The position numbers and the translations under genes were made by a program. The notes under the pieces were generated by a model. The model was not told the DNA's origin. It ran no database searches and was given only the letters and a program-made list of their open reading frames with translations. From positions 30,876,001 to 30,940,000 of the forward strand of contig CM120642.1 in the NCBI GenBank assembly GCA_051362555.1: a DNA stretch of 64,000 bases, in the 5' to 3' direction. Every line of letters starts with the position of its first letter. Within the stretch, counting starts at the first letter, position 1. Positions 3,837-63,165 of the stretch are shown in pieces. This DNA is from Lingula anatina (taxonomy: Eukaryota; Animalia; Brachiopoda).

Positions 3837-6800
3837 CTGAATACCTCCAGGTCAATAACCTTAGGCTCTCTATTTACGTAACTGGCACACACTGACAGTA
3901 ATGTGCATACCTTGACCTACCTCTATTTGCCATGCTAGTAAAACCATGACCCCATTTAAAAAAATATTCTTGATGTACACATTTGAACTGTCTCCAGTAT
4001 ATATGATTCTAGTAATAACAGTTGGCTGAAACAGTACTGGTGGCTATTGTAATGAGCAAGGGGAGCTTCACAATTTTTTCTTGCACATGACACACAATTC
4101 ACCATCAATAAGCTGTAAATATTCTAAACTTGTTTTGCAACATTTACTCACAAATTGAACAATTACACATTTATATTGCATTGTAAATGGCCCTTTTGTC
4201 CTGAAAAAAAAAAGGTTTTCAGTTGAACCATTTCGTGAAAATTCCTTGACAAATAAGAGTAGAAAAGGGCTGTGGAATGTTGACAATTGATATGTTGATT
4301 TACATGTAAAAAAATCAAGAAAGACAGATGAAGGTGTTACCCTTCATTCCCTTGCTTTTTTTTCATCAACACTTCAAATAAAAAGTGACAGAGATTGCAA
4401 TTCAAACTGTTTGCTATTTAGTTCCAAAAGGGGTTGTTTATGCATGGGACAGTAACGTGTGACACTGGTTTGATGAGATAATTAACAGGAATCCATCAAA
4501 ACGCCACACCCACTTAATATTCCATAACTATATTATCCGTATATAACAGTGTAAAGCGGGGTTAAACAGCCCAAACTGGCATGGTCATGCCTGACCTAAT
4601 TCTAGCCCTACCTGGCCTTGTCCTACACTCTACCAAGGGGACAGATTGACTTTTCACAAGATATTCCCAGATAATTTGTGTCTTTAGATAAATAGACAGA
4701 CATTTGATTCTCTGCTTTTTGAAATTTGCCTATTATGCTTGGTCATATTTGCTGCTATTCATGCCTGGACTAATTCTATACCAAATTAGCTTAATCATAT
4801 CTAGCTTTATTCTAGTCCCAACTTGCCTACACCTTAATGAAAATTCACATTTTTTTTCACTATTCCAGTCTGTTCTGTAATCTGTTCAATAGGCTAACAA
4901 TGTTCCCTTTTCCCTAGATTAATTTTATGACCTTTATGTAGAATCCATCTACCACCTTTTTGTACATATTTCGTTATTTTTAACCTGCCATCCAACAGTG
5001 GGGGTCATATTGCCAGGCCCGTAGCCAGGGGGGGGGGGTTCGAAAGAACTGCCCTTTTTGCTGGGAAAAGGTCCACTTTGGATAAAATTTGATCTAGGTA
5101 CATGAAGGTTTTATGATAAAAGGTCCACTTTTTCAGAAAACGAACCCCCCATTTGAAATTGCTGGCTACGGGCCTGTATTGCCATTATTCTGTTTTTGGT
5201 CCTGTCCAAAAAAAAATCCATTTTCCATAATTCAATGATTATTTTGATATAAAATTTCATCACCATTCTCATCCAGTGCAAGCGTAAAAGCTACCTATGG
5301 TGTTTTTTCCTCCCAAGATATTCCAACCCTCACAATCTCTCATTCTTGACATCACCCCTATGACCTGAAAACTAACTCCACATTCCACGATGAGGTCAAG
5401 ACCCAAAAGAGGACCAACCAATTATGTCCTCACATTTTGCGGTGACGTGCTGGTGGAATAATTTAGGCTGCATTTACTGAAGCAAGTGATGCAAAAAGAC
5501 CATAGACTGACTCAGCCCTGTGAGGTTAAAATATGTTTATTTTTCTTTACTTCTAGGGTACTTGTTCAAGTTATATTATGATTAACAATTTTTTCATGTA
5601 CTGAATTTCAAAGAACAGTAAACCAATTGTACTTTATTTGATTTTAAGCCAAGGGCAGTATCAATCACTGCTGCACTGGTTACATATCAACTTTTCTTTC
5701 TACAGATCTATTTTTTACAAGTCCAAGTATGCCAATTTGTTTTCTAAACAAGTCTAACTGATATCATATGTCGACATTTTTAAAAACTAAACTGCCTCTT
5801 TTTTACATGACAGAAATGTTGAGGCTCAAATGACTGTAAAAACCACAGAATATTTCATGCTACATAAAAATAAAATCTAACTAGACAAAGAAAAGCAATG
5901 GTAAAATTGGTTCTGATTACAGATTATGATTTTTCATCTTTTCTCAAAAACCAGTCCACTTCAGTCCCTGCCCAAAACCTTTCAGCCTAATTGGCCTTTG
6001 GGCCCCAAAGCAGAGCACACTGGCCTAAAGGTGATTGGATAATAATGGACACTATCAATTTAAGCAATTAAAATGGTGCCATTTTGGATAAAAAGGTGAG
6101 CAGGATGCGCGATGTTTCCTCTGAGTATTCTGTGGTTTGTCATAAAGTGAGTTTTTGAGTTTATAAGATGAAATTTTTTTGAACACTTCATAAGTGCTTT
6201 CATAGATTTTGTACCACCAAAGTTGCCATCAAGCCTGTAGGGCCAGTATATACAAAGGGCTTTTAAACTATTTCAATTATGGCAGGAACATCTCAGAGGC
6301 AGAAATTACATTAATCTTTCAAAGGTCTCATCTCTTAAATTATGCTTTAATCATAAAATTCAGAAAATCACCATTGCCTTTTCTCTCTCTTTCACCTTTA
6401 TGGGCACATGACACCTACATGATACTAACATGTTGCTATGGTTCAGACATGTAGTTGGTTAAGCAAGAATAACTGAGAATCAGCCACCTTGAAACCAATA
6501 CTTTTAAAAAGGCATTTATTCCTTATGCAAATAAGTAGAAAAATGAATGAAAAGAGACATTTTTTGCTATGTTTGATAATTAGGTCATTGACATAGTGGC
6601 GGTAGGGAGTCACCCAGACGACCCGTTATGCATACGTAGATCGCGAACTGCGTTTATGTACGAATGAGGCACAGCTGGAAATGACGTAATTATTAAAGGT
6701 GGCTGGAAAATAGCGCCGCTAAGGACTGGATTTGAACTAGCGGAAAAACGTTTTGAAGACAGACTAAGCGGAAAGGAGGAAAAAGGACTTAGAAAAGAAG

Positions 6801-9800
6801 CTGACGGGGAGGGAGGAGGTGAACGAAATAAAGTGAGAGACTTACCGATCTGCTACTTTAGCTGTACTCAAACACTGTCCTCTATTGTTGTACGTATAGT
6901 AGTAAGCGTTGTCGACGGCTGCACGTCTCTCTATAGTTGACCGCTCGTGCCGGAGGCTGGATACGATCTGACCGCTACTGCTAAGATCTTCAACGCGCAC
7001 ATGTGGGTCACATGTCAATTAGGACGCGTAACGATTGGTCAAGATGATGTAAGAAGTGCGGTAGAGGCACAAGTGGCTGTATAACGGCGCCAGGGCGACT
7101 CCCTACTTATTATGTAACGTCATAAATGGGATTGCGTCTAAGGCCGCAATCTTGTATTTATTCCTTATGCAAATAAGTAGAAAAATGAATGAAAAGAGAC
7201 ATTTTTTGCTATGTTTGATAATTAGGTCATTGACATAGTGGCGGTAGGGAGTCACCCAGACGACCCGTTATGCATACGTAGATCGCGAACTGCGTTTATG
7301 TACGAATGAGGCACAGCTGGAAATGACGTAATTATTAAAGGTGGCTGGAAAATAGCGCCATGAAAACGCCAGGACATGTGTAGCATGTACCTGGGGTTTT
7401 TCCGCCACCCAAAAAATGTAAATAAAGAAAAAACACCTATAATGAGATATGAACAATTTAATTATTGAACATTGATGCGTATATGAGAGGAAAAGGATAT
7501 TTAATTTAGTTTTGAAGTACCTGGAACTGTGTTGTAAAGTCCTTTGGTAAAATTTTTTGCGTATCAGTCCTTTGCTCTATAACAATATAAGCGTATAAAG
7601 TTGTTGTAAAACTATGCTGTCTTTTAAAAATGCTTAAACCACTGCAATCAGTAGAGGGGAAGTGACAAGTCCATGCTCCTATAGACGTATGTATATCTTT
7701 AACGTAATCGGAGCGTCGTCGCCCCGAAGGGTCAGTTGGTCGTACATACCCTTGCGTTTCAGTATATGAGTTCTATAACGAAATAAACGTATAAAATTGA
7801 TGTAAAGTAAGCTATCGCTTATAAATACATAAATCTCCTGTAATCGGGAAAGAAAAGAGTCTAGTCAATGGTTCTAAAAGCGGATGTATTTCTTGAAAGC
7901 GTTGGAGCGCCATCGCCCCAACGAACGGATCTGTTGGTCGGACATACCCCTGCTAGCAGCTAAGGTTGCGCCCCCGATACGAAAACTATGACTTCTTATG
8001 TTCGTGTTAGCGATTGAAGCGGACGCAAGGCATACTTGTAAGGCTCTGTTGAATTGGGAACGCCTCACTGGAGACCCGTCCTGATTTACGAAGAGGTGGG
8101 GGTAGGTGGAGGCCGGGCGGGCTTGGAGGTAAGCTTTACAGATGGACACCGGGCATATCGTAGGTTGCGAGATGATTGAAATCTGGAAGTTAGAGGTGAC
8201 TGATGAGTGTTTAAACGATCCAAAGGTTAGAGTCAGTTGATGGCTGGTCTGATCGTAACGTAGATCGTCCCGTAAGAGCGTATGAGGCGATGGTCCTGCC
8301 GTGATCTCACTAATGCGCAGTAAGCCGAAAAAGGCTAAAGAGAACATGGCCTTGTACAGGATTGCATTGTAACTCGAATCGAAAGCGTGTGAGGCGGCGG
8401 ATACGAGTTTTTCAAGGATAGGTAGAGTGATTGGCAGGCGTGTGTCCTGAGAAGGCTGTAGTCTCTGTAAGCCCTGAAGCGTCTGACGCACCAGGTAAGT
8501 GGCTGTGGGGTCCGTCATATTTCGCATTTTGTATCTGTAGCTTAAAGCTGACATGAAAGTTTTTATGGAGTTGGGCTTATAGCGGATCGCCAAATATTGA
8601 GCAAAGAGCGCCGTTATCGTAGCGTCTGCGGGGAAGGGTACTAAACCGGTGGACGCCTGAAAATCCTGTAATAGGTTGTCGATTTTTCCGTACGAACGTC
8701 GCGTTGAAGGGGCCAAGGCTGCGTTGATTGTATTGTTTAGTCGGCCAGTAAGATCTCGGGTGACAGATGACTGGGCAGCGGAACGGGATGGGGTGTGGCT
8801 GTCGTTTGCGTAGAGCGGAAAGTCTGAAAATCGAAGCGAGAAAGAGCGTCAGCTGCGACGTTGTCAGAACCTGGAATATGTTCGGCTTTGAATAGAATGT
8901 TGTAGGATAACGCAACAAGGGTTAGTTTGCGAAGTAAGCGGAGAATAACTTTTTCTTTTGTCGAACATTTGTTTAGAACGTATACTAGCGCTTGATTGTC
9001 TGAATGAACGATGACTTTTTTGTGAGCGAAAGTGTCACGCCATAGGCTGAAAGCTGCCACTATAGGATACATTTCAAGAACGGCTATGTTTAATTGCTTC
9101 AAGTGATCAGCCCAGGGTCCCCAGAACCACAGAGAGTTGAGTATCGCGCCGAACCCATGTTGGCTAGAAGCGTCGGTGTACAGGTGAAGGGTGTTCGAAC
9201 CTTCCCATGCGTCGTCGTGGAAGAAACCTCTTCCGTTGAACTCGAGTAGAAAACTTCTCCACATATTCAGGTCGGCTCGAGATTCGCTGTTAAGACGGAC
9301 TTTGAAGTATGGTTTAGAGACCCCTATTGTCAAGTTTATGAGTCTGCGAAGGAAGGCTCGGCCAGCGGGAATGATGTAGCAGCAGAAATTTAAGAGACCA
9401 ATGATCGACTGAAGCTCTTTCAATGTGATTTTCTTACTGCGGAGGTGAGACTGAATTAACTCTAAACACCTTGAGATTTTTTCGGCGGGAAGTCGGGCCT
9501 CTTGCTTTACAGAGTCTAGCTCAATGCCCGCGAACGTTATGGTCGTGGCCGGGTCAGTTGTTTTGTCTGCAGCGATGGGTATCCCGATGTCCTTGCACGT
9601 ATGAAGAAATTGTTGCAACTTGTTCGAACAACCTTGGTAAGAGCTTTCTACGACAAGGAAATCGTCTAGTAAGTGAGTCATGTGGGGAATGTCTAGCTTT
9701 GTAGCTGCGATCCACTGCAGTGCCGAACTAAGCTTTTCGAAGAGGCTGCATGAACACGAAAGACCCATAGGCAATGTTTTGTCGAAATAGAAAAACTGGC

Positions 9801-12800
9801 GATGTCGAAAGCCTAACAGAAAGCGGTAGTCTGGATGAATCGGAATGATACGAAAAGCATTTTCAATGTCTGTTTTTGCCATGAAGGCTCCCTTTCCAAC
9901 GGTCTTGACTAAGCGTATGGCGTCGGCGACTGTGGCGTATTGCACTGAAGAATGTTCTGGGTTAATGCCGTCATTAACCGAATGGCCTTCGGGGTGGGAG
10001 AGGTGGTGGATAAAGCGAAATTTGCCTGGGGAATTTTTGGGGACGACGCCGACAGGGGAGATTTTAAAATTTGGAAAAGGAGGGGTGGCGAGAGGGCCCA
10101 ATAAACGACCCGCTTGGACTTCGGTGAGAATTTTGTCGTCTAACGCTTGGGAAGTGTCGGAGGCGGACTGTAAGTTTTTAGTAGAATTTTGAGGGAGGGA
10201 ACCTGAAAAGGGGATTTTAAAACCTTCTGAAAACCCCGTAACTAGAAATTGAGACGTGACGATGTCGTAATTTGTGAGGTAACGTTCGAGGATCTGGGGT
10301 TTTACGGGGGTGGTGATGGACTGGTCCTGATTGTACGGCTTGTTTTGGAGAATGGCCTGCTGGAGAGGGGAACTAGAATCTTCGGAAGCTGGGTCTGGGT
10401 TGGTAGGGGGAAGGGCCGGAGGCTCGAAAGGAGTGGGATCGTTGGCGGGACATTTTGAATGGAGAGGGCTTTGACGAAAGTTGGGGGCAAGAGGAACGGG
10501 GGTGACTGCCCCTGCAGCCCATGCATTGGTGGGGGAAACGGCACGTGAGCGGGTTGCATGGCTGTCCCTCGTTCCAGCGAAAACAGAAGCCAGGTCTGGA
10601 GGCTGATTGTGGGACTTGGTCTTGATCACGTCTCGCAATGAAAGTGACCTCCGCCAATATAACTCCGTTAGGGTCCTCCCAGTTGAATCCAGGGGACTTT
10701 TGTTGTGCTCTGAACTTCTCGTCGTAGCGACGCCAATTAGGGAATTTGTTGGCCTGCATTTCGAGAATGCGGTTTGCGTAATGAAGGAGGCTCACTGCTT
10801 CCGTTGGGAAGCGCTGAAGGTGAATGACACTAAAAACGTGGAATGCGCACTGCCATTGATACGGGGTTATCGGAGACGAACGTTTGTGTGCAGGAGCCAA
10901 CTTAAACGAAATATTCCCGTCGTCGTCGACATTGGGCTGTGTAACGAGTTGTTGGGGCGTAGAAATTTCTGAAGAAGTAAGCGTATTTGACGAGGGGGGA
11001 AGGAGCGATTTCATATCCACGAACTCTTTAGCCCAGATTTTTTCCCTGAGGTTCTTGGGGACATGCTGGTCTAAAAGTGAATAGTGGCTCTTACCTTGAG
11101 AGCCCTGGTCCTGAGCCGGGCAGTGGAGGTGAGTGGGTGGCTGAAACTGTGCCTGGTTAGAAGAAGGATTACCCATGTAACCCTGAGAGGACGAAGGACC
11201 GGGATTAGAGGCGTAACCCGTGTTACCCTGTGACGACTGACGAACTTGAGACTGGGCTGGGTTACCCATGTAACCCGGGTTACCCATGTAACCCTGAGGG
11301 AAGGGAGAGTGTGTTGTGGCAAAGAAACCCAAGTTACTCTGCGACGACGTGGAAGGCTGGACATGTCCGGAGTTACCCACGAAACCCTGCGTGGTAGGCA
11401 GCTGAGATGGGGCAGAGTAACCCATGTTACTCGGCACTGCCCTTACAGCCTCTTGACTCCCGGTGTGTAAAGGTGCTTGGCCGTGCAGGGACACCTGACC
11501 CTGGATAGGATTACCCATGTAACCCTGTGAGGTGCCAGGTGGTGGGCTGTTTATGACACCCTGAGTAGCTGTATTGCTTGTGTGCGCATCTGATATCAGC
11601 GATCCGCTAGAGGGAATTGGGTTTGAGGCGGCGGCTGCTGCTCGTGGCGAGCTGTTTTGCCTGTGTTGATGCGCGACCTGCACGTTTGCGTCCGTCATAA
11701 CGGCGGTCGCGTATTCCCCGTGTTCCTGCAAGGCTTGAAGGAAGGAGAATCCTTCCATGGGAGGTGCAGGGATGTGAGGAAGTTGGCTCATGGTCTGAAA
11801 TAGAGAATGAATTGTTGTGACTCCCTGAGCAGAGATTTTAGCCCTGCCAGCTATGTGGGTGAGTGGGGGAGGGTGTCTGTATGTGTGAGTTTGTTTTATG
11901 TGAGAGGAGTAAAAAGATGGAAAGGTTCCGCTAATATGACGAGCAACGTACGTGAACGGATGTGTAAATAGTGGAACGTGATAAAATGTAACGAACTATT
12001 GCGATAACGTGTAACGAGCATAACGGGAACAGTAACGAATCTAGCCGTGATAACGTGTAACGCATGCGGCATAGTAACGGATGTAGCATGTAACGAATTA
12101 ACGTACGTAAGTATAACGTGTTTCATTGTGCGGAAAGTAATCTGAAAACGTGTAACTTAATGTGGCATGTCTGTAGTGAGTATAACGGGAAAATGTAACG
12201 AATCTAACGGTAATAACGTGTAACGTATGTAGCTTAATAACGGATGTAGCATGTAGTGAAATAACGAACGTAAGTATAACGTGTTTCAGTGTGCGGAACG
12301 TAATCTGAAAACGTATAAATTAATGTAGTATGAAACGTGTAAACCATGTAACGAATGAGACGAGATAATATAAAACGTATGTGGCGGTGATAGGAGATAG
12401 CGACTGCAGAATGTGCTACGATGTAACGAAAGGCCATGAAAACGTGAAACGTACGCAACTATTTAAACAGAAGCGAATCAAAAGAATAAAATGATGGCAA
12501 CGTGTGTAACGTAACGGAATGCGTATAATTATTATAACCTGAATAAACAATAAAACTAAATATAGTTAGTAGGCGACTTGATGCAAGGAGCGTGGTATAC
12601 TCACGCAGATGACGTCGCGAATGGATTACAGCGCCCCGTATCGATCGCCAGAGACGTTTTCGTCCCCGTGTGTTCAGATGAACTCCGTCGGAGCAGAGGA
12701 CGTCTTTCCACGCATCTTGGATTCCCACGTGTTTCCAGAAGTGTGCTCGTGACTTGGTTGAAAGTTGTCTTCGTAGTTCGTCGTTGATAACGTCGACTTG

Positions 12801-15244
12801 GCCATTGAAAGATTCCTGGTCCGATTCCTGCTTCAGGTAACCCCTCTGTTTGTATGCTCGAGGGTAAAGCTGGCCCCAGTATAAGTGAATGCGACGGTTA
12901 CGGCGGAGGATTTCATCAATTAAGAACAGGATGGAACGGATGACTGGTGTGGGATCGTGGCCAAGGCGAATGTCATTTTCACCCAACTGACAATATATGA
13001 AGTCGGCTGAGGAAACGGCGCTCCAAAGATCGGGAAATTGCCACATGCTGTGGACGTTAGCGCCACCACGCGCTAAGTAGCGTACTCTAGATCCAGCAAT
13101 ACCAAGATTGTTGGGAAGGTCACTGTCGTCCCGAAGTCGACGGATGAAACTATGTCCCATAACTACAACTTCCCGATTGTCTGGTTTCATGCTGAACGTA
13201 TGTGTACTAAGCTGCAAAGAATGAAGGAATAATGCGTGGGGTGAAGTGAGGGTATTGCGTGCTAAGACTTGGTAGTAGGAGGGGGTGTTGTAGAGACAAA
13301 AAGATGTGACTAGGCTATGAGCATCTGTTAAGTATTAAAGTCGGTTCTATTGAAGAGCTGGGTTAATGTGACGCTAATTAGCTCGTCCGGTGAAAGTTAC
13401 GTAATGACCTAAGTGATGTAAGCTTAGGTTACAGATTAGAGAAGACTTTGGAGCCATCTAATTAAACATGCATGTGTCCACAGATGTGGTGCGTGGGAAT
13501 GGCGTAAACATATCTGAACTGAAAAACGTATAGGAAGGCAAGTTTAAGCGTAAAAAGGGGCTATGTAATGTGTTACTAACGACTAATCTGTAGTGATAGT
13601 GTAAAGGTGAGCGTTCTAATAACGAGAGGGATGACTATCGGGGGTGAGGTTCATTAGCTACGGATGCGTAAAATATACTAGTGGACGTGTATTAATAATA
13701 AGCTTCACCTGCATGTCTATTAAGAGCTAACGAGCGGGGTATCTAATGTGACTAAACGAACTACCATACAGTTCTGAGTCCGGTGCTGAGATCCTGGAGT
13801 GGTAAGATCGACGATCGGAGGAAAAAACTCAACGTCCATCGGTGTTAAGTAACGACAAGAGATATAATGCCAACTGTAGACCATGATAACGTAACGAACT
13901 GATATTGAACGAAATAAAGTGAGAGACTTACCGATCTGCTACTTTAGCTGTACTCAAACACTGTCCTCTATTGTTGTACGTATAGTAGTAAGCGTTGTCG
14001 ACGGCTGCACGTCTCTCTATAGTTGACCGCTCGTGCCGGAGGCTGGATACGATCTGACCGCTACTGCTAAGATCTTCAACGCGCACATGTGGGTCACATG
14101 TCAATTAGGACGCGTAACGATTGGTCAAGATGATGTAAGAAGTGCGGTAGAGGCACAAGTGGCTGTATAACGGCGCCAGGGCGACTCCCTACTTATTATG
14201 TAACGTCATAAATGGGATTGCGTCTAAGGCCGCAATCTTGTATTTATACCAGAAGCCTAAATTTAGCACTTCCATCCCATAAATTTCAAATCTCATTTTA
14301 ATGCCCCTTCCTTATATGGGAAATAACAGAGATTCTGACCATCATAAAAACCCACTCTGCCCATTTTACATGCATACTGAGTTGCTGTCACGATACTAGA
14401 ATATCGGTAGTAAATCAATAATTCAACTACATAGTTCATTGTACGTATATGTATAAATCTTATTCAAGAACAGAAGCCATTAATATATGACAGCAAGTAT
14501 GGTTATAGCTGCCATCTTGTGGACAGTCCCCAACTGGATCTTTTCTCTCACAAATATGACCTTTATGTTTACAAGTTTATTGTTATCAATGAGAACAAAT
14601 ATCACAAAAGCCTGAAAAACACAGGTAAATAGTCCAGAAATTAGCATTCTATAAGCATCCCTGCCATGGACACACATACCAGCATAATTTGTTTACCAAC
14701 CACTGAGAAAGTTGAACCATTCAAGATTATTTTCCAAAATGGTATCAAAAATTATCAACATTTTCAACACTTAGAGAGCATTCACATCAAGAAGAGCCGA
14801 GGTCTAGCAAGGCCCAGAGCAAAATATGACTGACCTTCATGAAAGGAAGCCTGCCTAATCCTTTAACAGTCTATCAATGAATAAATTTGAAAATGGGAAG
14901 TTCAAGTATACAATTGATGATTCATTTGGCTTAAGTGAACATTTCTGTTATTCATTAACATAATATTAATGCTATTTATTTATCTTATGAACTTCATAAT
15001 CAGCATTTTATTAGCTTATTTACTTATTTCTATTATTTTATTATTGTTTTAGGGTCTCGGGGGCTCAATTCCTTTGTTTAAATTGTGTTGGGTTTTTAAC
15101 TTTATATACCAATTTTAGCACATTCCACACAAAAAGCAAACTGCCTGATCAAATATGTAAAGTGGAAGAACTTATGCGCATAAATAATCATCTGTAATTC
15201 TCTGCCAAGTTAACACACACTAATAAAAACTGACAGCAACCACA

Positions 15245-27727: not shown

Positions 27728-28308
27728 CATAGGCATAATGAAGTAGATATATTTTGAAGGACAAAGTGGCCTATTTATGTATGAAGATAAGATGAAATAG
27801 CTCATGACATATAAGATAAAATGGCATTTGATATCGATTTTTGCTGAATGCAGCTGATGCTGGTCTAACAGAAAGTCTGAAATAAAGAACGGTAGTACTG
27901 TCGAATGTGGATACAGCCTTCAGGAACGGGGGTTGGAGGGGAGGAAAGGGGTGTCAGGAATACATTCCTGAAACGTTTTGGATACCACATCTAGTGAACG
28001 CCTTATGGTAATTGAGGGTCGAAGGGGTGGTGGGAGGGGGGTTGGGGGAGTGGAGGGGGCACGTGCACATTATTCACCTTTAAATATCGTACTGCCGATG
28101 GGCAACGGTACTTGGGTTCTCTCGCCATACTCATTTATTTCAGAAAGACATCTTGAATTTATTGTAAGTGAAATTACTTAAACGTATCCTATCCGAGATT
28201 TTCTTTGAAAAAAGAAGTAATTTTTCTTTTAACTTTTTCAGTTTCAGAATTGTAGCTGAAAAAAAGAAAAACCATTCGCTATATAAATTGGATCTGCATA
28301 ATTTGAAG

Positions 28309-31300
28309 ATGGGAGAGCCGCAACGCAAACGCGCTATGAAAAGGCTACTGCAGGACTTGGAAGAGTTAAAGAAGTCCCCAGTGGCCAACGTGTCAGCCGC
28401 TCCTCTAGATAGCGACATGTTTGAGTGGCACTGTAACTTTAAACTCGATGATAACGTGTACCACCTTATCCTATTCTTTCCTGAAAACTACCCCTATCGG
28501 TCTCCAAGTGCAGAGTTTGTACCACGTGGTTTTCAGTATCACGGAGGAGCCACCAAAAATGGAAAGAAGGGAACGCAAGTCTGTTTGTCGATTTTCTCGG
28601 ATTTTGCCGATTGGCACCGGGAATGGGCGAACGACAAGGCCATGGGGTGGTCTCCCGGGTACACCGTACAGACAGTGCTGTTGAATATGCTGTCGTTTCT
28701 CATCGAGGTTCAGTCTGCCAATTCAGGTATGAATAAATCGGGTTTTCTGAAAACTTATTTGCGGGATAAACTTTTGGTTTTGTTTTGTGTGGTTTAAAAT
28801 TTATTTGATCATTGTGCCTTTGTCATTCAATTTTTCGAAATAAAAACCTTCTTTATTTTGTGTCTAATCTTCACCAGTAGTTATTTTAAATACAAATTTC
28901 ATACGAACTGAATCACGCATCGGGCTGCAGATCAGTAAAGCTAGATTATGATGGTTTGGATATTTGATGAAAAAAATGCGCTCATCCTTTATAAATATCC
29001 TGCACTAGGGTATCCCACAACAATGCCTTGCGACAAAAACCACGGTTTTAGTGTCATCTACATCTAATTTATTCAATTTGACAGCTTTAGGAGGAACAAA
29101 CGAAGCAAACCTGAAACGCAACCAGAAGTTTAAGTGTTCAGATTGTGGCCATAACTTCAAAAAGCCCTATCCGGAGTTGCCCAAGGAAAGCGAAACCACA
29201 GTGTCGCCACCTGCCGCAGAAGACGGTAAACCACATATAGTGTGCTATATTTCAAAGGCGCCGTTTAAGGTATAGTATGTTTACCTCAAGTGAATTCTTT
29301 TAAAAGAAAGTAGATAATATCCATCTTTCAGTCTGATTTGGAAGATTTTTTTTACTTTGATATCTTTACATGAGAATTATCATAAAATCCATCAAACATT
29401 ATCAGTGTTTACATAATTTTGTCTGTTAGACATTGTGTCTCCCTCTCGGATTTGAAATCCATCCAGTATTATATTCCTTTGTGTAAAATACAACTGGATG
29501 ATTATCATACACAGTATTATCATTTGTAAATGTTACAAATTCCATTCTTTCACTCAGAATTTCACAGGTTTTACACAAAAATGATTTTTAAAAAAATTAA
29601 TGCAAATTGGTTCAAATCATTTCAAACAATTCATTTATAATTTTTCTGAACCAGCCCTTACGTGTTATTAAAAAAAAGAAAAAAAAACAAAAAAAAAACA
29701 AACAAAAAAAAAAAAAACAAAAAAAAAACAGCACGAGTGAGTGTGATTACTTCAAGCTATTTTTCTCCATCCCAGGTTGTGAAGCCCAAGTGCCGGGAGG
29801 AACTTTATGGCTACGGTTTAATTAAATCAGGTCCAGACCATCGCCCGTCTCTGACCACCCCGTGCGAGTTTCTAACCGGTGATTCTTTCTACAGTATGCA
29901 AAAGTCTGTAGGAAACGTTCAGAGCATCATGAAGGAGGACCTAGCGTTCTTTCTGCCACTTTACATTCATCCAAAGCACGGCGAAGAAATCAAAGCCACG
30001 TTTGAAGAAACGATGAGGGCGGTGTCTAAAATATTGCCGGGGTGTAAGAGGGACAGCACCCCCATGGAGACGATAATTTTGCGCGTGATACCAAACCTCA
30101 TGGCTGCAACGGTGGTCGAGTTTTCTAAAGGGACGCAGCACGCTAGTGATAACCACCTGAGTGGATACTTCGCCCTCCATCGCTTGTTCCTATGGGCGTT
30201 GAAGGAGTATCCGAAAATGCAAGACATGTTGGAAGAGAAACTTAAAGTAAGTTCAGCGTCTCTTGGGGATAAATGGAAGAATTGTGTTGGTTTGTGGCGT
30301 CAAAACATGCACAGAATAGGCTTATATGTTTCACATAGACAGTTCTGATCTTATTTGCCTAGAGGAGAATTTTAAAACTCTGCACGCGACTTCCATCCCA
30401 GTTATCATAATTTAGTTATCCAGAAAAATCATAAATAATAATAATAAAAGTTTGACCCAAATTTATGAAAATATTAACACTCTAAACAGTATGTTCTCAG
30501 ATTCGTGCATAATTGATTATATAAACCTTCATCTGTAGGAATTTATCACCGATGAAGATCATCGCAGCAAGAAGGCATGCCCTCACATTGGAGAGTGGCT
30601 GATGTTGCTGTCGGCTTCAAATAAATACACGTAAGTACAGACTGAAACTCGTTAGTGTAAAATGAACGCCTTAACCGCTGTGCGAGATGGGTAGTTACTT
30701 TTTTCACTCATACACGCGTTTACCCTAGGCATGATAATGAAGCTAAAGAGGAGAGAAAAAAGACCAAAAAAAACAGCTTTAATATTTGTCTATATATTAA
30801 CCAATGCATTCAGATGGCAAGATGCTTCGGACGCCTATTTGTCAGAGAGTTGGAGACGTAACGTAATGTGGTATGTCAAAGATGACGCCAAGCTGGGGTT
30901 TATGGACACGCCGCAAAACTATCGGTTAGAAAAGACACTGCAAGCGACAGCTGTAAGCAGGAAGATACTGGCGTTCCAGGTTTGTATTTTTGAAAAAATT
31001 TTAAAAATTACAGCAAAATTTGTTTTTAGTTAATGGGAGATCAAATGCTGAAGTGAAGTTTTTGTGCACTATTTGTTATGATTTGAACTCTATGCAACTA
31101 GGTGAAGTGGCTCTTAATCTATGTGCCCCTCTTTCGCAAGTAAAATTCTATATTTCAGATATTTATAAGTGCAAAAATTATCACCGATAAACATTGAAAT
31201 TACTGGTTTACAGGTTTTATTCTTGGACATTGCTATGCCAAAAAGTATGACAAGAGATAACGTTGTGAAGCGGTATGACGAAAACTTTGGATTTCCAACG

Positions 31301-53391: not shown

Positions 53392-55400
53392 TTATATTTC
53401 ATAAAGATTCATTTTATTTAACTCTTCTCTTTTCTTGTCGTCTGCTTTCGAAATGTTTTTCGTCTTGCTGTCACGTGGCGCGGCGTTGTCCTTGTGGACG
53501 GTCACGTGATACTGCAGGGCAACGGAATAAGTTGGGGGAGTGGAGCAGAAGTCGTTAAAATCGACAATTTCCAACCCGTCGTCGGTGACGTATGTGCCCC
53601 TGGCTGTTGGTTTCATTGGTACCATCTGTCCGGTGATCTTGTCCCCCTGTTTGGAGGTGGAGGTGACAGACGCGTTCCTTTGTACACCAGACAAAGTGTA
53701 TTCCCCGGAATCGGCTGCCTGAAGATTCAAGGTGATGTTTGAAGTAATTCTCGTCTCCTCATCAGAGCTAGGTTCAGTCGCCACGCCAGTCTTCTTTTTT
53801 TCTTTACAGCAAAATAGCAGAACAAGGAAACCGCAGCAGCAGCAGGACAGCAGCACGGCGAAACCAGTGCTCACGGAGAAAATAATTAAGGTCGTTTCGT
53901 CTTCAAGAAAGTGGCCCTTGTCATTGGTCCCAATCCTCGCTTGGGCACTTTGGTTCGATTTCACCTCAGTGGTGATACGTTCACGAGGAGACTTAAATCC
54001 ACTTGTTGTTCCTGTTTCTGCCGGCGTCACTTCTAAGACTTTGGTTTCGAAAGCCGTTGTTATTGAGGCGGCATCCGTTGTTGTCAAATCGCTTCCGCCC
54101 ACAGCTGCAATTGTCAGGAAAATTAGGATTAAATATGTTGCTCGTGGATAGTTTTGTATTATGTTTATTTTGGAGCGATTTATGGCTACTGACTGACATG
54201 ATCTGCAAAGCCACTCAGTTAATTTGGCATTTTAACAGAATCTATGCTAAACGAGCAGACAATCGCACAGAAAAGTAAAAATTCTCTAAGCAATGTCACC
54301 GTTCATCAGAATTATCGATATTTCACTTATTGCAGTTGATGCTAATACTTGTTAACTTACTCCAAACACTAGAAATAATTAGTTATTTGTAAATTACAAG
54401 TTAATGCTTTGGCAAATCTAACAATCTTTATATTGTGCAGCTGCAGCATACGGTTTTAGGGTTGTATAACCAAATTCTAACCTTGACAAAGAGCGCTGGA
54501 GATTTCACACACTATATCAGAAAGCGAATCAAAGTTCAGTACGCTAAATACGTGAGTGTCATTTGGTTTGCTGGCAATGGAAGCTAGTTCATTGAAGTCG
54601 ACCATGGTAGCGTTTCCAATTCCTATGCAGTATATTTGCATCCCTTCCTTCCGAATTAAATCTGCCTCGTGTATGGTTTGAAGTTTGTCGCTTGATTCAC
54701 CGTCAGTGAGAAGAATAACCACTTTAGGCACATTATGTTTTATATTGTTTTTATAATGTGGATTTTGAGGATTAAATAAACTCGTTCGAATATGAGATAA
54801 CCCTTTATGCGTTTCGGTAGCACCGCCGTTATGCACGATTTGCCTTATTCCTTCTGTAACGTCACCGTGGTCTTCTGTCCAACTAAAAGCGTCTCTGTAG
54901 CCATTGCTGAAGAGTGTTAATGCAACATGTGTTTGGGTTTTGCCGATGGTCAATGAGTCGGTGATGCTGTTCAAAAATCTAAGCATCTTTTTGAAACTGT
55001 TCTCATCAATACTGCTTGAGTCGTCTACCAGGAAAGCGATATCACCTTCGCCATTTTCACAACTGCAGTTGAATGTGCCAGTTTGTGAGTAACCACCTGA
55101 AATATGTATCTTAAAAATGAATCTAATGCAATGATCTTATAAAAAAAGAAAAGGGCAATAGCATAAAGGGCATCATTAGTGATATAAACAGATGGAAACT
55201 TTTTATTGAATTATTATCGATGAAAATTTTACTCTAGGCGTTTGTCATTCGAAAATCCATAAATCATCAAGACAGGATATTTCTTGAATGTAACTTGCAA
55301 TGAGAAAACATATTTATTATTAATTTGTAATAGTAAACTTACCTGCGTAAAAGAAAACATGAAAGCACCAAAATGCAACAATAAGATACCACGGCTTCAT
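53392..55400 (-). CDS. vWA-domain type I membrane protein (short paralog). Exons 55400-55343, 55096-54482, 54104-53392
   Basis: Signal peptide MKPWYLIVAFWCFHVFFYAG; vWA with MIDAS (DIAFLVDDSSS, GGATET, LLTDGES); Thr-rich stalk; TM helix with a Cys cluster; cytoplasmic PPTY. TATAAAA about 85 bp upstream (~55482-55488). Confidence 0.85.
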
Positions 55401-57213
55401 TTTGTCAGCCCAGTGCTGTCAAACACCCAAGGCCGCAAATGAATCTTAAATTTGTGATTTGTTTCGTCACCCTATCGGCTTTTATAGCAGTATAATCATA
55501 CAAACGCTCGTTATGGGCCCATCACCCCGAGATTCAGAAAGCTGACGTTGACTTTATTAATATTAATATAATTACATATCCACAGGACCCCAGTTTTAAT
55601 TGTTCAGTGGTCAGGTTCTAATAAATTAACAATGTGGTAAAATGGTATCACTATTAAAAACATTAGATTGTTTAAAAGCACCAGAAATGCCGTATATACT
55701 ATCGTATTTTAAATGAGGTTGCAGATGGTTTTTCATGGCCCCCAATAACATTTTAACAACTTGAAGATACAGTTTTTACAATATTTTTTTCAAAAGAATA
55801 CTGGATAACCTTAAACAAGCGTCAATGTGCGTGATATTATCGAGAAAAAACTAAGAGCCACGGTCAATTACATGTACATGCGACATTCAGGGTATTGTAC
55901 GTAACACAATCACAGCGATAAAACCAATCACAAACGGAGGCTATAACCGAGCCAGCGACAGGTGATAAGTTTGTATATTGGGCTGGGAAACCACAAGTTG
56001 GTCTTCCACGGTGGGTATCAAGGGTCCGTGCTGAACTTAGTTTTTGGTGCACTTGAATCTGTTTTGGTTATTTCGCATACGTTGTATTGAGTTACTGTTT
56101 GTATTCCATAAGCTGTAGCGCGAATTGTACCACATCAGAGGCAAGATACAGTGTGAGAGTGTAAAATGGCAATAATGAAATGTCGAAAAACATATTTTAA
56201 AGTCTGAAAAAGTGTCACGAAGGACCGCCCACAATAAATTGATCTTGCTATCGATGTTTTCTATTACATACCATGGCATATAACTACTTTGCATATTCTC
56301 TTTATCAAAATACCTGTAATTAATCAAATGTCCTGCGAAAATTTGGCCCATGTAACGCTCACTTTCGGTCTGTCTTTGAACATAATGTCTTTCTCTTTTA
56401 CTGAAAAATTCTTAATCTGTCCTAGGACATTCTGAAGGACTTCCCAAAAACAGTTCTCGGATTTTTACATCCATTACAGAACAACATTAGAACTGTAAAA
56501 AAATACACCAAATGTTCTAGAATAGATTGAGAACTGAACGTTAAATGAGACAAATTTTCGCATGGGACGTTTCATATGGAGCATACGTGTATGATAACTT
56601 GTCCTTAAAAGCAACACATGGGTTAAAACACGAGACAACAATTATCTACTCCAGTATCAAACACAAACCTTTTGAGTCCAAGGTTAATCAGATGGGGCTT
56701 ATCTCTTCACGTGAACAGAGAAAGACAAACCAGTATTATCAACACTTAAATTTTATCAAGACTAATTCATGTGAACTGTTTTAACATAATAAGCTAACAT
56801 GCGTGAGTTATATTCACTTCTGTTTCAGAAGCACATTTTGACGCGTTTTCCCTGAACGAAAGGTTTGTTTACGCTATACAGATAACAACATTTAGTTTCT
56901 AATGCTCACTCACAGATACGTAAAGTGATAATATATCGGTAAGGTGAACACGTACAGATCACCATCTCAAAGCAAATAAAGATAAGATAAGTTTAACATT
57001 TCTCTTCCATGCTTGATTTATTCACTGCGTTTTTAAAGATGGCCACAAAGAAAAAAGAAACACTACTTTAAGTTTAATCTCTATTGGTGATATTTCATCG
57101 GGATTTTTTCATTTTTGTTTTGAAGTCGTCAGGAATGAGCATTAAAATACAGCCTATTTTGAAAAGAAATGGCCTTGCAGTGCTGAATTATGTAATTTTA
57201 TCCAGTTTTGAAG

Positions 57214-60200
57214 TCAAAACATCAAGTTTTTGGCAGCAACCGAATCTCTGTAATTCCAAGATGGCCGCTGAGTATGATGGCGATGGTTTCTTCTATTGGA
57301 TGTGAATGTAACTTCGCTCTTGAGCGCGATGGAGTAAGATGGTGGCGTGCTTCCATAGCCGTCGAAATCCTGCATCTCCAAACCGTCTGGCGTGACAGTT
57401 CGTCCCTGGGATATTGTTTTCACAGGGACTGACCTGTCCGTCGATAGAGGTTTATACGTCGCTTTGGACGTCATGGTGAAATCAGATTCACTGGGACCTG
57501 GAGTTGTTTGGTCCGTGTTGTTGTTGTTTAGTTCTTCGACAAAGAAGGTGTGCTTCTCACGGCGCCGTCGCCTGTATAATAATATGAAAAGCAAAAGGCA
57601 ACACAACAGCAGGATAAAACTAGCTCCAACGGTTATACCAAAAGTGACTTTGGTTACAACACTCGCATTGTCCAAAAAGAATATTCCGTGATTGTTTATC
57701 ACAGCAGCCGGGTTTGGTTTTGAGGTTGTATTAAAGGTCCCAAATGGAATATCTACTGCAAGATCCTCGTCCACAAGGCCGTCATCATCGTCGTCAATGC
57801 CATTGGATTTCTCCTCGTCAATTGAGCCATCACAATCGTTATCAGCATTGTCACCCGGTAGCGAGTACCCAGTTGGCCTGCAATACTGTCCCAAGGGAGC
57901 GAACCGGCTACCTGCCGAAAAGCCAAATCCTCCAGAGCGAGTGAAACCGTACACATTGGCTGAGAAGACAACTGTAGGGGACGTATGGTACAGGGCATGA
58001 ACTTTTTCAGTGACTTTCAGCGCGGCTGAAACGTACGGAGAGTTTGGTACAGGAGACCAGGCTCCGACGATGTTCGAACTGTCTAGCTGATAGCCGTCTA
58101 TACGCAGTCCTTCGCTATATCTCCTCTCGATGACAATGTTCACATAAACGTCGTTAATTTCCTCAGAGTCGTCCCGAGTGGTTTCCGGGGGGCTGATGAC
58201 GTAATAGGACTGCCACTGCTCGGCTGGCGAGAGAGTTATCATAAAGGCCTGACTTGGCATGCCATCTAAGTTGGTTGTAAACGGAAACAGAATCAAGAGT
58301 GAATGTCTTTCAAAATTAGTTACCGGATAAATCAAGAACTGAAAGCAAGAAATTCAAGAAAGAGCAACGGACATCAACAGTGGACTGCTTGAAATCGGCG
58401 ACAATATCTTTTTATCAACACAGAGAAGACATTAGCAATTAGACAACGTCACAAATTATCAGAGCAGGTAGTAAGTAACTGACCTGACAGGCTATACTGT
58501 GTTACAAGGACCCCGGTGTCGCTCTCCACATACAGGTGCTCCGAACTTGTGCCATTTACACGGATAAAACTTTGTGGGTGGAGCGCGATAGTTTCAGTAG
58601 AATGGTGATCCGATGATATAGTGACTTTTGTGTTTTCAAAGGCAGCTTAAATGCAGAACAGACTCAGTTTGAAATTGGCAGTCTAGACACCATTGTAAAA
58701 TACATAAAAGCTCTTGGCCTATAATACAATTCAGTCTATGAGATGATTTTTGCTCGAAAATTTTCTTGACAATAATTTAGTCATATATTAAGGCAAAATG
58801 TCTTGCAGATAGTATCTACTTAATATCAAATCTCTGTGCATACTTTGAAGATCGAAGCGGGTAAATAGTAAACAGTTACCTAGAATACTAATGGTATATC
58901 CGGCCTTGCGATCCTGCAATGGACTCACCGCAAATTGTTTGCCGAGTGTTTTAACCGGGGGTATCATTTCCTCAAGATGGTCTTCACTCTGGCCGTGAAA
59001 GGAATCGCCGTGATGGTTCCCGTAAACGTTCGTGCCTGAATTCCCAGAATTCACTGCCACGGGATAATTGGCTGTCACCATGGTACCCGACAGGTCATGC
59101 GCACTTTGTATCTGGACCGCGTCGTATTGTTTTAGAGGAATGATGATTGTGTCACCGCTTGAGTATAAAGTATTGTTGAAGGTGACCGTCACAGGCAGCT
59201 GTTTCTTTGGTGGGAGAGAAATTCGCACGACAGTATTGGCCTTGGTGCTCGACACACCTACGATAAAAGTAATACAAAATATAAGACTGAAATGGGTGAA
59301 GGGATATAATTATTGGTTCATGGAATGCGTAATAGTGGAAAGGTTTACTGTATCACCAATGATGCAGAATGCTTCACAGAAATGGCAGCCTAATAACCAG
59401 ATGTTAATTGTGCCATACATATGTACACAGAATGGCAGGCAGTTCGTCTATGTGGCCTGCCAACAAAACGCAGACATTATTGTAACTTAACAACAACCAG
59501 TTTTCCACATTTACTGCCAAGACAAGGTTTTCATTTCTGAGTTGAGAACCTGTCAACAATCTGCATCAATACCTACTGAAGTCACGTGTTTATTTTGTCA
59601 TTTTTACCTATCTGTGACCTCCCAGTTGCCCCTTGCCATGACGGAATCAGGTACTGCCGGCCCAGGGACGTTTCTGGAATGACGTAAAAACCGTCTGAAC
59701 TCTGGGAAGCCTGGTTCATGACAAACACATACACAGCGCCGGTTGCTTGAACACGTACGGTTTTCGAGGATATTTCTGTTTCCTCTAGCTGCATACTGCG
59801 GGGAATGTGTACCTCCACAGGTGATAGGTATCGAACCGTGATCTGAAATTGAACGATCAATCAATCAATCAATCAATCAAAAAGAGATGTAAATTATGAT
59901 TCATCCAGTTGTGATGTTCAAATGTAAAACTATTAACACTAATACCGGACGCTCACTTAGATCTGCTAGATGTTTATGCACCAACAACAACACGTGGTCC
60001 TATTATCTAATCCATGGATCAATCAAGCATCAGTTAAGCTCTCGATAATGAGCCAACGCCTTTTACGTATCTTTGCTACCAAATCTACAACAAAAAAGTT
60101 AATAAATCAAAAGAAATGTTGCATCTTATTCAGTAAAAGTCATCAATTCTATAATACTCACTCTTTTGTATAACACGTCCGCAGGGGCATATACGTCCAC

Positions 60201-63165
60201 TGTAACGAGGTTTCGTTGTACTGTCAATATGCTCAACTTTAAGGTACTTGAAGTGTCAGATGGTTTATTCTCACCAAAATTGAACACAAACGTCCTTCCT
60301 CTATGCCCTACGAAGAAAAAAATATGCCTGACACATAAATAGCTGCATTGAGAATATCTGAATATATTAACGACATTATGTCTTTATACATGCATATACC
60401 GGTACACATTCTCTGGTACATCAGTATCTATCACCAAGTATAGATCTATGGTTCGTTAAGTTTTGAAATTTACTCTGACCCATATCTGCAATTGTACCAC
60501 TTAACGACAGTTATCCCACTGAATCTTAATCAATGACAGTATTTTATGGTACTTTATTTTATAAACAAAAGTAAAAACGATCCTACTGGATATCAAGAAG
60601 CATATAAATTAATATAAAAACATACCAATGCGGGGTAATGGTGAAGTTGCCAGCCCTGCAGCAGATCCCTCATTCGTTGGTTTCGACACTATTGTGGTGA
60701 CGAGTGTTGACGATGGTATATGTGTTGTTGTCCTAGCTGATCCTGATGGAGTCGTTTTTGTTGTTGTGGCCTGCAAAGCCTGTCCCACTCTCGTTGTTGC
60801 GGTATCTGTAACAATGACAGGAGGTAATGACAATCGCACTGTTGTTGTGGCGGCCGTCGTTGTCATTTCTGTTGTTGTACCAGGTGTTAATGTCGGCAGT
60901 AGTTCAGAGGTTTCACCAAGTGTTGATGTCAATATTGTTTCGGTCGTTGTTCCAGGCGCTGAAGTCGGTAGTGTTTTGGTTGTTCCAAGGGCTGATGTTG
61001 GCAGTGTTTCAGTTGAAGTACCAAGTGTCAATGGCGGCGGCACTTTTGTTATTGTTGTTTTTGTTCCAGATGTTGTCTTTGGCAGCACATTTGATGTTGA
61101 TCCAGTCGTTGTTGGCGGTGGTACATTTGTTGTTGTTGTACCTGGCGTTGATGTCGGCGGTACTTCAGTTGTTGTACCAGGTGTTGTCGTCGGCGGTACT
61201 TCAGTTGTTGTACCAGTTGTTGTCGTTGGCAGTAATTTAGTTGTTGTACCAGGTGTTGTCGTCGGCGGTACTTCTGTTGTTGTACCAGGTGTTGTCGTCG
61301 GCGGTACTTCAGTTGTTGTACCAGGTGTTGTCGTCGGTGGTACTTCTTTTGTTGTACCAGGTGGTGTCGTTGGCAGTAAATCAGTTGTTGTACCAGGTGT
61401 TGTCGTCGGCGGTACTTCTGTTGTTGTGCCAGGTGCTGTCGTCGGAGGTATTTCAGTTGTTGTACCAGGTGGTGTCGTTGAAGGTAATTCAGTTGTACCA
61501 GGTGTTGTGGTCGGCGGTATTTCAGTTGGTGTACCAGCTGTTGCCGTTGGTGATACTTCAGTTGTTGTACCAGGTGGTGTCGTGGGTAGTACTTCAGTTG
61601 TTGTACCAGGTGGTGTCGTCGGTAGGAATACCGTGGTAACAGCCGATGTAGACAGTTGGAATTCTCTTCCGGTTTTTACACTAATCAGAGAAGGAATTTT
61701 TTTAGGGGCTTCTGTTGTTAAAGTCTCCTTAGTCGGTGTCTCTGTGGTAAGGTCCAGTAATGCACTGGTTATGCCTTTTGTCACAGTGGAGGTCTCTGTC
61801 GAGGATGAGAAGCGAGGATCCTTAGTCGGCAGAGAGCTGTGTATTGCCTTCAGTGCTTCACCAACAGCTTGAAAAGGAATATTCCATACTGTGTTACTAT
61901 GATGATATACGGTAATGTTGTTACCAAAGCAGTCGCATGAAATTTTTACTATACTTTACTATACAAGATACAATTACTGTCATATTTATGCAAGGCGTCA
62001 TATAAACACTCTATTCAACGGATAACTGGACGTAGAACTATGTTTGAATATTCAGCCGATAGTTCTTTTTTAACAAGTTTATGAATATTTATTTTAAAGC
62101 TTTGCACGCTGTACCATTGGAAATAATGACACCTATATATTTATAAATTGTGAGGCTTATGTAACGTACCTTTACAAATGCTCCTGGACACTCTATCACC
62201 GATACTGCTTAGCGCTGTAAAATCATCAACGCTATAAACATGGCTGTCATCAGGATCGCTGGCAATGGCTTGAAGCTCATTGTAGTCTGTGCTGTTACCA
62301 ATACCAATAGCAAATATCTCTATACCTTGCTTCTGAGCTAATTCTGCTTCCTTTTTGGTCTCGGTGAGGTTGTCGGAAACTCCGTCAGTTATCACAATGG
62401 CGACTTGCGGAATTCCTTTTCTAGCACCAGGACCAGGCTTAAGGGGGTTTAAATGTGCCAACCTTGCTAAACGTATAGCTTGATGAGTGGCTGTCCCTCC
62501 GCCTTGCTGCGCTACAGCATCTATCTTATTCAAAACATCTGTTTTGCTCGTGGTGTCTCGCAAAGTAAACTGTATTTTGTAACCATTTCCAAAAGTAATC
62601 ATAGCCACCCGAACGCCGTCTTTGCTGACATTGAAAGACGTGTTCACCATGATGTGAATGAACTGCAAAACTTTCCGGAATTGAGCTGCTTTAATGCTTC
62701 CTGATTCATCCACAAGGAAGGCGACGTCAGCTGCAGAGCTGCAGTCTTAGAAAAAGGTGTTTTTTAATTATACGAAAACAAAAAAATCTTGAAAGTGTTA
62801 CAGCGCTTGTCAAAACTAATAAAAAAGTTAGATTATTACGAACTGGTGGACATTCTAAGCACGGTTAATATCAAAATATCATCTAGGACCAGAGTCAAAA
62901 AATTACTTAAAAGTTGTCACATCTCACAGTCATAGATGACATACGAAAGACACACTCACAAACACGGCCTCTCAGTGGTGGTTTAAGTTGATAGATTGAT
63001 ACATATGTATGTCTACTGTAAACTAAGATAAATAACTACCTGTTGACTCCTCGGGTGATATCATTGTAGTATATGGCAGTGAGGAACTCTGGATAATGGC
63101 TGAAGCACTGGTAGTGAGTAGGGCAACATGACTGTGGCTGCTTGTTTTCAGTTTTTGTTCCACCG
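57214..63165 (-). CDS. Large type I membrane protein: vWA + mucin-like PTT repeats + IgGFc-binding-like region + DNDCDG acidic motif + TM. Exons 63165-63040, 62745-62170, 61867-60626, 60307-60162, 59842-59608, 59257-58880, 58645-58484, 58265-57214; 5' end not located
   Basis: vWA DVAFLVDESGS / GGGTAT / VITDGVS; TTPGTTTEVPP repeats; FCGBP N-terminal-like motifs (GRTFVFNF, SSDGFYVIPETSLGRQY, DLSGTMVTANYPVAVNSG, DHLEEMIPPV); GDNADNDCDGSIDEE..NGIDDDDDGLVDED; TM followed by RRRRR; PPSY tail. GT-AG phase-consistent exons. Confidence 0.85.
61020..61625 (-). repeat. 36-bp coding minisatellite (12-aa PTTTPGTTTEVP units)
   Basis: Repeated TCAGTTGTTGTACCAGGTGTTGTCGTCGGCGGTACT on the plus strand. Confidence 0.9.

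Follow-up and report, generated by a model that had tools for sequence, protein, structure and literature searches.

The tyrosine recombinase (YR) of an intact Ngaro-type retrotransposon of Lingula anatina is probably, at roughly two chances in three, produced by a splice from position 11095 to position 8823 as a fusion of the Gag N-terminus, Gag(N), with the recombinase. The donor inside gag would be joined to an acceptor in the last RNase H codons, with the Gag core and pol being dropped as a 2271-nt intron and a 548-aa Gag(N)-recombinase being left, in which the Gag N-terminus may serve to ferry the recombinase into the particle. That the splice likely occurs in cells is what we infer from the structure of the element, the splice sites, their join, which is in frame, their conservation in relatives and the gene models in databases. 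The conserved phase-1 donor in gag, the CAG of the acceptor and these gene models favour the splice over a ribosomal frameshift, and the donor in gag also speaks against a reading with the leader as the only donor.

Architecture and classification of the element

The window, that is, the whole analysed stretch of 64,000 nucleotides, contains the element on its minus strand in the order A1-SGNH-gag-pol-YR-B1A2B2, with the following repeats and open reading frames:

13906..14247, minus strand: A1 terminal repeat, 342 nt, 100% identical to A2, starting with the 6-nt core common to the ends of B1 and B2
12459..13190, minus strand: SGNH/GDSL hydrolase ORF (PF13472, E=8.5e-07, 30.1 bits, under the 32.9 cut-off), with homologues in relatives
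10373..11791, minus strand: gag-like ORF, in which a low-complexity N-terminus of 232 aa precedes a conserved core with a Cys/His knuckle at its end
8737..10791, minus strand: pol ORF (RT and RNase H), in the +1 frame relative to gag, without an early ATG
7874..8848, minus strand: YR ORF, in the -1 frame relative to pol, with the first ATG at codon 99 (PF00589, E=2.6e-07)
7156..7359, minus strand: B1 repeat, 204 nt, 100% identical to B2, with an AATAAA-containing stretch at its end
6820..7161, minus strand: A2 repeat, in which the leader donor recurs at 6846
6514..6717, minus strand: B2 repeat, the 3' end of the element

The assignment to the Ngaro type follows the split direct repeats A1...B1A2B2 (342 nt shared by A1 and A2, 204 nt by B1 and B2), the overlapping ORFs in the order gag-like, RT/RNase H and YR, and the YR with its catalytic motifs R, H-x-x-R, W and Y all located and its -1 frame overlap with the end of pol. 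No Pfam match to a methyltransferase domain was present after RNase H, and the end of pol lies about 30 residues past the RNase H motif. The SGNH ORF, which follows YR in amphibian elements, lies here between A1 and gag; since this ORF is an optional feature, its position leaves the membership unaffected. The same placement 5' of gag was seen in 15 of the 17 families with an SGNH motif, in contigs that may be collapsed or permuted. The gag-like ORF matched no Pfam family, and the search with the full-length gag query gave no matches; the relatives came from the query with the core domain, which found 2402 of them at E up to 0.001, and their gag ORFs were located by a 151-row gag profile, one row of which is an off-frame peptide of the window. 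A scan of viral contigs found no relatives of the element. In the relatives, Met is absent from the first 60 YR codons in 15/23 families.

Predicted splice sites and their conservation

The predicted splice sites are as follows:

13926..13934, minus strand: predicted leader 5' donor, last exon base 13932, rank 2 of 403 GTs
13212..13240, minus strand: predicted SGNH 3' acceptor, first exon base 13211, rank 2 of 394 AGs
11795..11820, minus strand: predicted gag 3' acceptor, first exon base 11794, rank 5 of 394
11089..11097, minus strand: predicted gag-internal 5' donor, phase 1, last exon base 11095, rank 1 of 403, at the border of N-terminus and core, predicted partner of 8823
8824..8852, minus strand: predicted YR 3' acceptor, first exon base 8823, inside the RNase H motif AD..SR..Q

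The sites were scored by a rough weight matrix of our own, with approximate metazoan frequencies taken from general knowledge, and not by MaxEntScan. The preliminary description of this DNA had proposed that the element expresses its genes by alternative splicing from a leader exon in the terminal repeat. Its donor at 13932/13931 and its acceptors at 13212, 11795 and 8824 read on the minus strand as it gave them, with the SGNH ATG (13190) lying 21 nt and the gag ATG (11791) 3 nt past the respective acceptor. The gag-internal donor 11095/11094, the top-scoring donor of the element, was missing from its list; the prediction that 11095 joins to 8823 came from the sequence alone, ahead of the work on RNA and relatives. 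The acceptors before SGNH, gag and YR rank 2, 5 and 6 among the 394 sense-strand AGs, and the remaining ones of the top six (7837, 11293, 12538) precede no ORF start. A score of at least 5 is reached by 55 of 960 random 60-nt windows in related loci, and simple multiplication puts three of three acceptors by chance at about 2e-4, with the YR 'start' not having been defined beforehand. The 8824 site is located 24 nt into the stop-to-stop YR frame, whose next in-frame ATG comes only at codon 99. A branch-point-like CTGAC is found about 29 nt upstream of the YR acceptor.

The conservation of the sites in diverged families, which had been proposed as a check, was found for the YR acceptor and is not evident for the leader donor. 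The Gln codon at the YR acceptor is CAG in 26/26 families with the motif, whereas the other Gln codons of pol are CAG in 177/376; the 4 of 30 families without the motif by pattern were left out of the codon counts, and in three families CAG is displaced two codons downstream of its usual position. Four-fold sites have reached saturation across these relatives, at a median identity of 0.29. The Arg codon before the acceptor is CGN in 26/26, compared with 0.60-0.83 in nine further conserved Arg columns. For Ala, the codon is GCT, creating CTGAY, in 19/26 (0.22-0.52 in twelve other Ala columns). At the protein level, Gln occupies one of two positions in all 116 pol homologues with the motif, 4 of the 120 being without it. 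The residue encoded in the YR frame at the acceptor varies while CAG holds in every family counted. The Ser codon TCN was set aside as splice evidence, being uninformative, with 2/9 other Ser columns also at 100%.

For the donor, the best-scoring site just before the Gag core is in phase 1 in 21 of the 24 testable families, compared with 35/72 in the control (Fisher p=7e-4), and in 14/24 no donor anywhere in the gag ORF scores higher; the 6 of 30 families without a usable start of the Gag core were dropped from this test. The gag donor and the YR acceptor are therefore kept in matching phase across diverged members. Several close relatives (P0001, P0002, P0004, P0006, P0008, P0121) have an ATG about 20 codons past the YR acceptor, and their YR, judging by this start, might not need Gag(N).

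Five RefSeq loci from three animal phyla, of which three are of Lingula, one of Acanthaster and one of the frog Dendropsophus, are modelled as a low-complexity N-terminus followed by YR; these models are predictions, with XP_013410733.1, XP_022103377.1 and XP_069823144.1 standing for the three phyla. In three of the five, no RNase H motif could be encoded in its expected register by the residues upstream, two Lingula models being ambiguous, and the N-terminus of XP_013410733 aligns with the N-terminus of Gag P0243 better than 500/500 shuffles. At one Lingula locus the isoforms differ at the N-terminus only, and at another four accessions represent one protein. Together with the conservation, the models support well the YR acceptor of the preliminary description, while its leader is not the predicted donor for YR.

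Alternative routes to the recombinase, SGNH, Gag and pol

The reading in which one non-coding A1 leader exon is spliced to all three acceptors, so that SGNH, Gag and YR each have an mRNA of their own, draws on the high ranks of its donor and acceptors, on the 13 and 29 upstream ATGs that unspliced RNA carries before the SGNH and gag starts, and on pyrimidine-rich AGs within 30 nt of the ATG at 11/20 gag starts (control 62/197) and 9/15 SGNH starts (control 45/151), a modest enrichment in relatives (p about 0.02 for one of the two and about 0.05 for the other). The Lingula isoforms and accessions fit variable 5' exons, and the relatives with an ATG soon past the YR acceptor are also in line with it. 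However, the leader joined to 8823 gives no in-frame ATG before YR codon 99, the conserved phase-1 gag donor is left unexplained, conservation of the leader donor is not evident (7/13 versus 3/13 on the reverse strand; GTRAG 21 versus 21), and no leader junction appeared in the RNA runs, at a depth of 0-6. The leader ATGs were also considered as a coding first exon and rejected, since their three ORFs end inside A1, after 6, 1 and 23 codons. Because of these short ORFs and the lack of an early ATG in YR, the leader is predicted not to serve YR, and the three-acceptor reading appears improbable. The idea of one leader with several mRNAs, thus, cannot explain YR; for SGNH and gag it is plausible, with modest support, and a non-coding A1 leader spliced to these two acceptors, by which the upstream ATGs would be bypassed, has by its sequence signals a slightly better than even chance.

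The published alternative, a -1 ribosomal frameshift from pol into YR, for which PMC13003380 quotes Poulter and Butler 2015, would make the splice-like sites a mere consequence of constraints on codons and of a strand rich in pyrimidines. YR does overlap pol in the -1 frame in 23/24 families with a readable frame, and the reads across the YR acceptor are unspliced: on its intron side, at 8843, there are 4 sense reads in run X1 and 10 in X2, with 5, 4 and 2 reads on the exon side at 8776. Nevertheless, a -1 slippery heptamer is present in the pol/YR overlap in only 3/23 families, and a frameshift leaves unexplained the invariant CAG under a varying YR-frame residue, the phase-1 donor of gag and the gene models that join Gag(N) to YR, so that this route to the recombinase has a low probability.

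It is also conceivable, though on the whole rather unlikely, that Gag(N) and YR are indeed joined by splicing and that internal promoters downstream of A1 drive SGNH and gag; this reading is consistent with the central part of the preferred explanation. Sense reads were observed inside the proposed leader intron in 3/3 runs of study P1, with the A repeat barely covered, and these observations do not favour abundant leader splicing; the leader donor, as noted, shows no evident conservation. Against internal promoters stand the strong acceptors immediately before the SGNH and gag ATGs, the tiny read numbers and the fact that poly(A) libraries under-cover 5' ends. The RNA data come from 6 of nine same-species raw-read runs, about 6% of most runs having been read, and at their depth of 0-6 over the element no spliced junction passed the listing filter. 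Run X3 gave two reads for a joint 7826/10440, whose ends are not GT-AG in the window sequence and which was disregarded. Already-joined copies were not found in 98 YR domain matches in the window and 80 loci, the loci having been chosen for having pol.

For pol, a conserved spliced acceptor was not supported, the best sites being in phase 1 in 14/22 families versus 31/44 controls, with equal median scores. The overlap of gag and pol contains a candidate site, a lead only:

10423..10432, minus strand: candidate +1 frameshift site of the UUU-C type

The F-R codon bias for such a shift was not significant (18/29 in the overlap versus 70/122 elsewhere), and the 7 of 30 families without an intact gag/pol overlap were dropped. 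The looser UUU-C motif is enriched, at 43/114 Phe codons versus 48/241 (p=6e-4) and in 20/22 families, with the F-H conserved in the knuckle acting as a confounder. A +1 ribosomal frameshift from gag into pol is thus possible on these sequence grounds, at somewhat less than even odds.

Taken as a whole, a complex-retrovirus-like programme of animal Ngaros, with the A1 leader joined to SGNH and gag, the gag donor joined to the RNase H acceptor with its branch point, and a +1 shift for pol, is proposed tentatively, the odds being against its full form. If it is true, the motif AD..SR.Q would act in part as a splice signal, in cnidarian-type metagenome contigs as well as in brachiopods, echinoderms and frogs, and an enzyme would have a splice acceptor written over one of its motifs.

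Comparison with known systems

A defined splice would name the actual recombinase protein, with its 232-aa Gag N-terminus, as needed for expressing and assaying these recombinases, and it suggests that some 'uncharacterized' animal RefSeq genes with a phage-integrase domain may be spliced Ngaro mRNAs. Spliceosomal introns in fungal YR retrotransposons were reportedly described by Goodwin and Poulter in 2004; they are said to be ordinary introns in a subset of elements, with no alternative splice skipping pol.

The Lingula element shares with such Ngaro-like YR retrotransposons of the DIRS order as Xenopus DIRS-53_XT and the Cafeteria Ngaros (10.1101/2021.08.05.455354; PMC8547959) the arrangement A1...B1A2B2, the gag, RT-RH and YR overlapping frames, the lack of a methyltransferase and the extra SGNH ORF. 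It differs from amphibian Ngaros in that their SGNH is described after YR. For the translation of start-less overlapping ORFs in the DIRS order, the consulted literature has the presumed frameshift only; the evidence in the Lingula element points instead to a splice from gag, and a Gag-YR splice in such elements was not found reported in the literature search.

In plant Ty1/Copia elements a conserved alternative splice, giving the shGAG RNA, sets the protein ratio (PMC5580714); there, the splice with early termination yields Gag alone, whereas in the Lingula element it would remove the Gag core with pol and yield the recombinase. A further parallel is the SD' RNA of murine leukemia virus, in which, according to PMC10496198, a gag donor is joined to a pol acceptor and the Gag N-terminus with integrase sequence forms P50. 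In the virus, and by prediction in the Lingula element, a splice fuses a Gag N-terminus in frame to sequence of an integration enzyme. The two belong to different groups: P50 is an accessory protein with no more than the final 116 aa of a DDE integrase, while in the Lingula element the whole YR would depend on the splice.

Element structure and candidate splice sites

The intact element carries two pairs of repeats in the order A1...B1A2B2, with A1 equal to A2 (342 nt) and B1 equal to B2 (204 nt), both at 100% identity, and the four ORFs following A1 encode an SGNH hydrolase, a gag-like protein, reverse transcriptase (RT)/RNase H and a tyrosine recombinase (YR). It is a young Ngaro-type retrotransposon. 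The following features were located in the window:

14247 to 6514, minus strand: intact element
14242-14247, 7156-7161 and 6514-6519: 6-nt core present where the 5' flank meets A1, where B1 meets A2 and at the end of B2, the pattern that recombination of a circular intermediate into a matching target would leave
13932/13931, minus strand: leader donor in A1
13212, 11795 and 8824, minus strand: acceptors of SGNH, gag and YR
12010-12332: tandem duplication of 161 nt with 86% identity, in non-coding sequence between SGNH and gag
11095/11094, minus strand: donor inside gag, phase 1, the best donor of the element
10432-10423: UCC-UUU-CG site
7837-7860: top-scoring acceptor-like site of the element, in 3' non-coding sequence just past the end of the YR ORF
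28168-28794, plus strand: ORF with a ubiquitin-conjugating domain
54480-62746, minus strand: host exons encoding VWA and IgGFc-binding domains
about 60835-61704: 36-nt tandem array

The leader donor and the three acceptors were confirmed as the preliminary description had placed them. By a rough, self-made weight matrix, the acceptors 13212, 11795 and 8824 rank 2, 5 and 6 among the 394 sense AGs, and an equal acceptor score was reached by 55 of 960 random windows in relatives. None of the remaining three of the top six leads into an ORF start, so strong sites occur also without a role in the model.

It had been proposed that one A1 leader exon is spliced to all three acceptors in a complex-retrovirus-like programme. 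The first ATG of the YR frame is codon 99 of 324, and the ORFs of all three A1 ATGs close before the leader donor; thus, an RNA joining the leader to 8823 would encode a recombinase lacking its N-terminal third. The gag donor 11095 joins 8823 in frame, with a predicted product of 548 aa; this join was predicted ahead of any look at RNA or relatives, and the conserved Gag core starts a few residues past the donor. The proposal is partly supported: conservation and database gene models speak for splicing to the YR acceptor, with the donor inside gag and not the single leader as the predicted source. The gag-to-recombinase splice is the best-supported of those considered, and animal Ngaro elements in general probably use it.

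Conservation of the gag donor and the YR acceptor

The best 80 of 436 loci from a scan of metagenome contigs formed, together with the window, 30 families at an 80% cut-off, and 26 of these carry the acceptor motif, with a median nucleotide identity of 55% and saturated four-fold sites (0.29). The acceptor is embedded in the RNase H motif N..AD..SR.Q, whose glutamine codon is CAG in 26/26 families, against 177/376 for other pol glutamines and 38% at the sole other conserved Gln column; in the three families where CAG is missing from the usual position, it lies two codons further on. At the preceding arginine, AGR is avoided in all 26 families (other Arg columns, 0.60-0.83), and in 19/26 the Ala-Asp codons spell CTGAY, which resembles a branch point (other Ala columns, 0.22-0.52). 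The serine codon signal was uninformative as acceptor evidence. At the protein level, Gln stands at either of the two positions in 116/116 homologues bearing the motif.

Within 180 nt around the Gag-core start, the best donor is in phase 1, the phase required by the YR acceptor, in 21 of the 24 testable families (control 35/72; p=7e-4), with a median score of 4.4 vs 0.9, and is the best of the whole gag ORF in 14 of the 24.

Among the 120 YR homologues listed of 477, five reach at least 389 aa, all being NCBI models, that is, predictions, and in all five a low-complexity N-terminus precedes YR:

XP_013410733, Lingula
XP_013392382, Lingula
XP_013393009, Lingula
XP_022103377, Acanthaster
XP_069823144, Dendropsophus

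In XP_013410733, the register of the RNase H-frame phenylalanine matches that of the window, and the L-S-R motif could not be encoded there by the preceding residues; the starfish and frog models give the same result, off by one residue, and the other two are ambiguous. The alignment of the XP_013410733 N-terminus with that of the closest Gag (P0243) beats 500/500 shuffles.

RNA reads and the expression of the other ORFs

Six of nine same-species runs were examined, at about 6% of each (25% of run X7). The depth over the element in study P1 was 0-6, mostly in sense orientation assuming conventional strandedness of the libraries, and no junction with at least 3 reads was found at this coverage; in a second mapping, with A2 used in place of the leader exon, no leader reads were listed, whether spliced or unspliced. 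The unspliced reads over the YR acceptor region (4 and 10 at 8843) count against the gag-to-recombinase splice, and the reads within the proposed leader intron, with A barely covered, count against the leader splices. Unspliced RNA is expected anyway, serving as genome and pol template. These few molecules neither confirm nor refute splicing. Many X7 reads match only short parts of the A/B repeats and then other sequence (7180-7360, 14034-14073), which suggests expressed short relatives with common termini.

In the unspliced RNA, 13 ATGs lie ahead of SGNH and 29 ahead of gag, which makes a shorter mRNA of some kind likely necessary. A pyrimidine-rich AG occurs near 11/20 gag starts (p~0.05) and 9/15 SGNH starts (p~0.02), against about 30% of other ATGs. 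A leader donor could not be demonstrated in the relatives, where the repeats are mostly unassembled (7/13 vs 3/13 on the reverse strand, and GTRAG 21 vs 21). Leader splices to SGNH and gag are plausible but unproven.

The pol frame is +1 relative to gag in 22/23 families, and no conserved pol acceptor was found in the relatives. The gag-frame UUU-C is enriched in the gag/pol overlap, and the site at 10432-10423 resembles the +1 site of influenza PA-X; a +1 frameshift to pol at a UUU-C type site is a lead only. Three copies (P0208, L021:1062-3183, L070:202-1459) hold gag and pol in a single open frame, possibly as frameshift mutants showing how a Gag-Pol product would look.

Comparison with known systems

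Programmed frameshifting was graded by Poulter and Butler 2015, as quoted in PMC13003380, as "probably" the source of YR; a slippery heptamer was found in only 3/23 families. No report of a Gag-YR splice was found in the Ngaro/DIRS/YR literature searched, including the accessible portions of PMC7192593, PMC9341512, PMC6681497, 10.1101/2021.08.05.455354, PMC9940879, PMC5633606, PMC4157794, PMC3783388 and PMC8547959; subscription papers, Repbase notes and supplements lie outside this scope and may bear on novelty.

SGNH is upstream of gag in 15 of the 17 families with the motif, whereas in amphibian elements it is described as following YR (10.1101/2021.08.05.455354). The locus L008:1258-10988, with a 3.6-kb near-perfect direct repeat and SGNH on both sides of YR, is a tandem or permuted assembly, which calls for caution on gene order in metagenome contigs. 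The nearest working analogues of the gag-to-recombinase splice are the SD'/P50 of MLV and the shGAG of plant copia elements.
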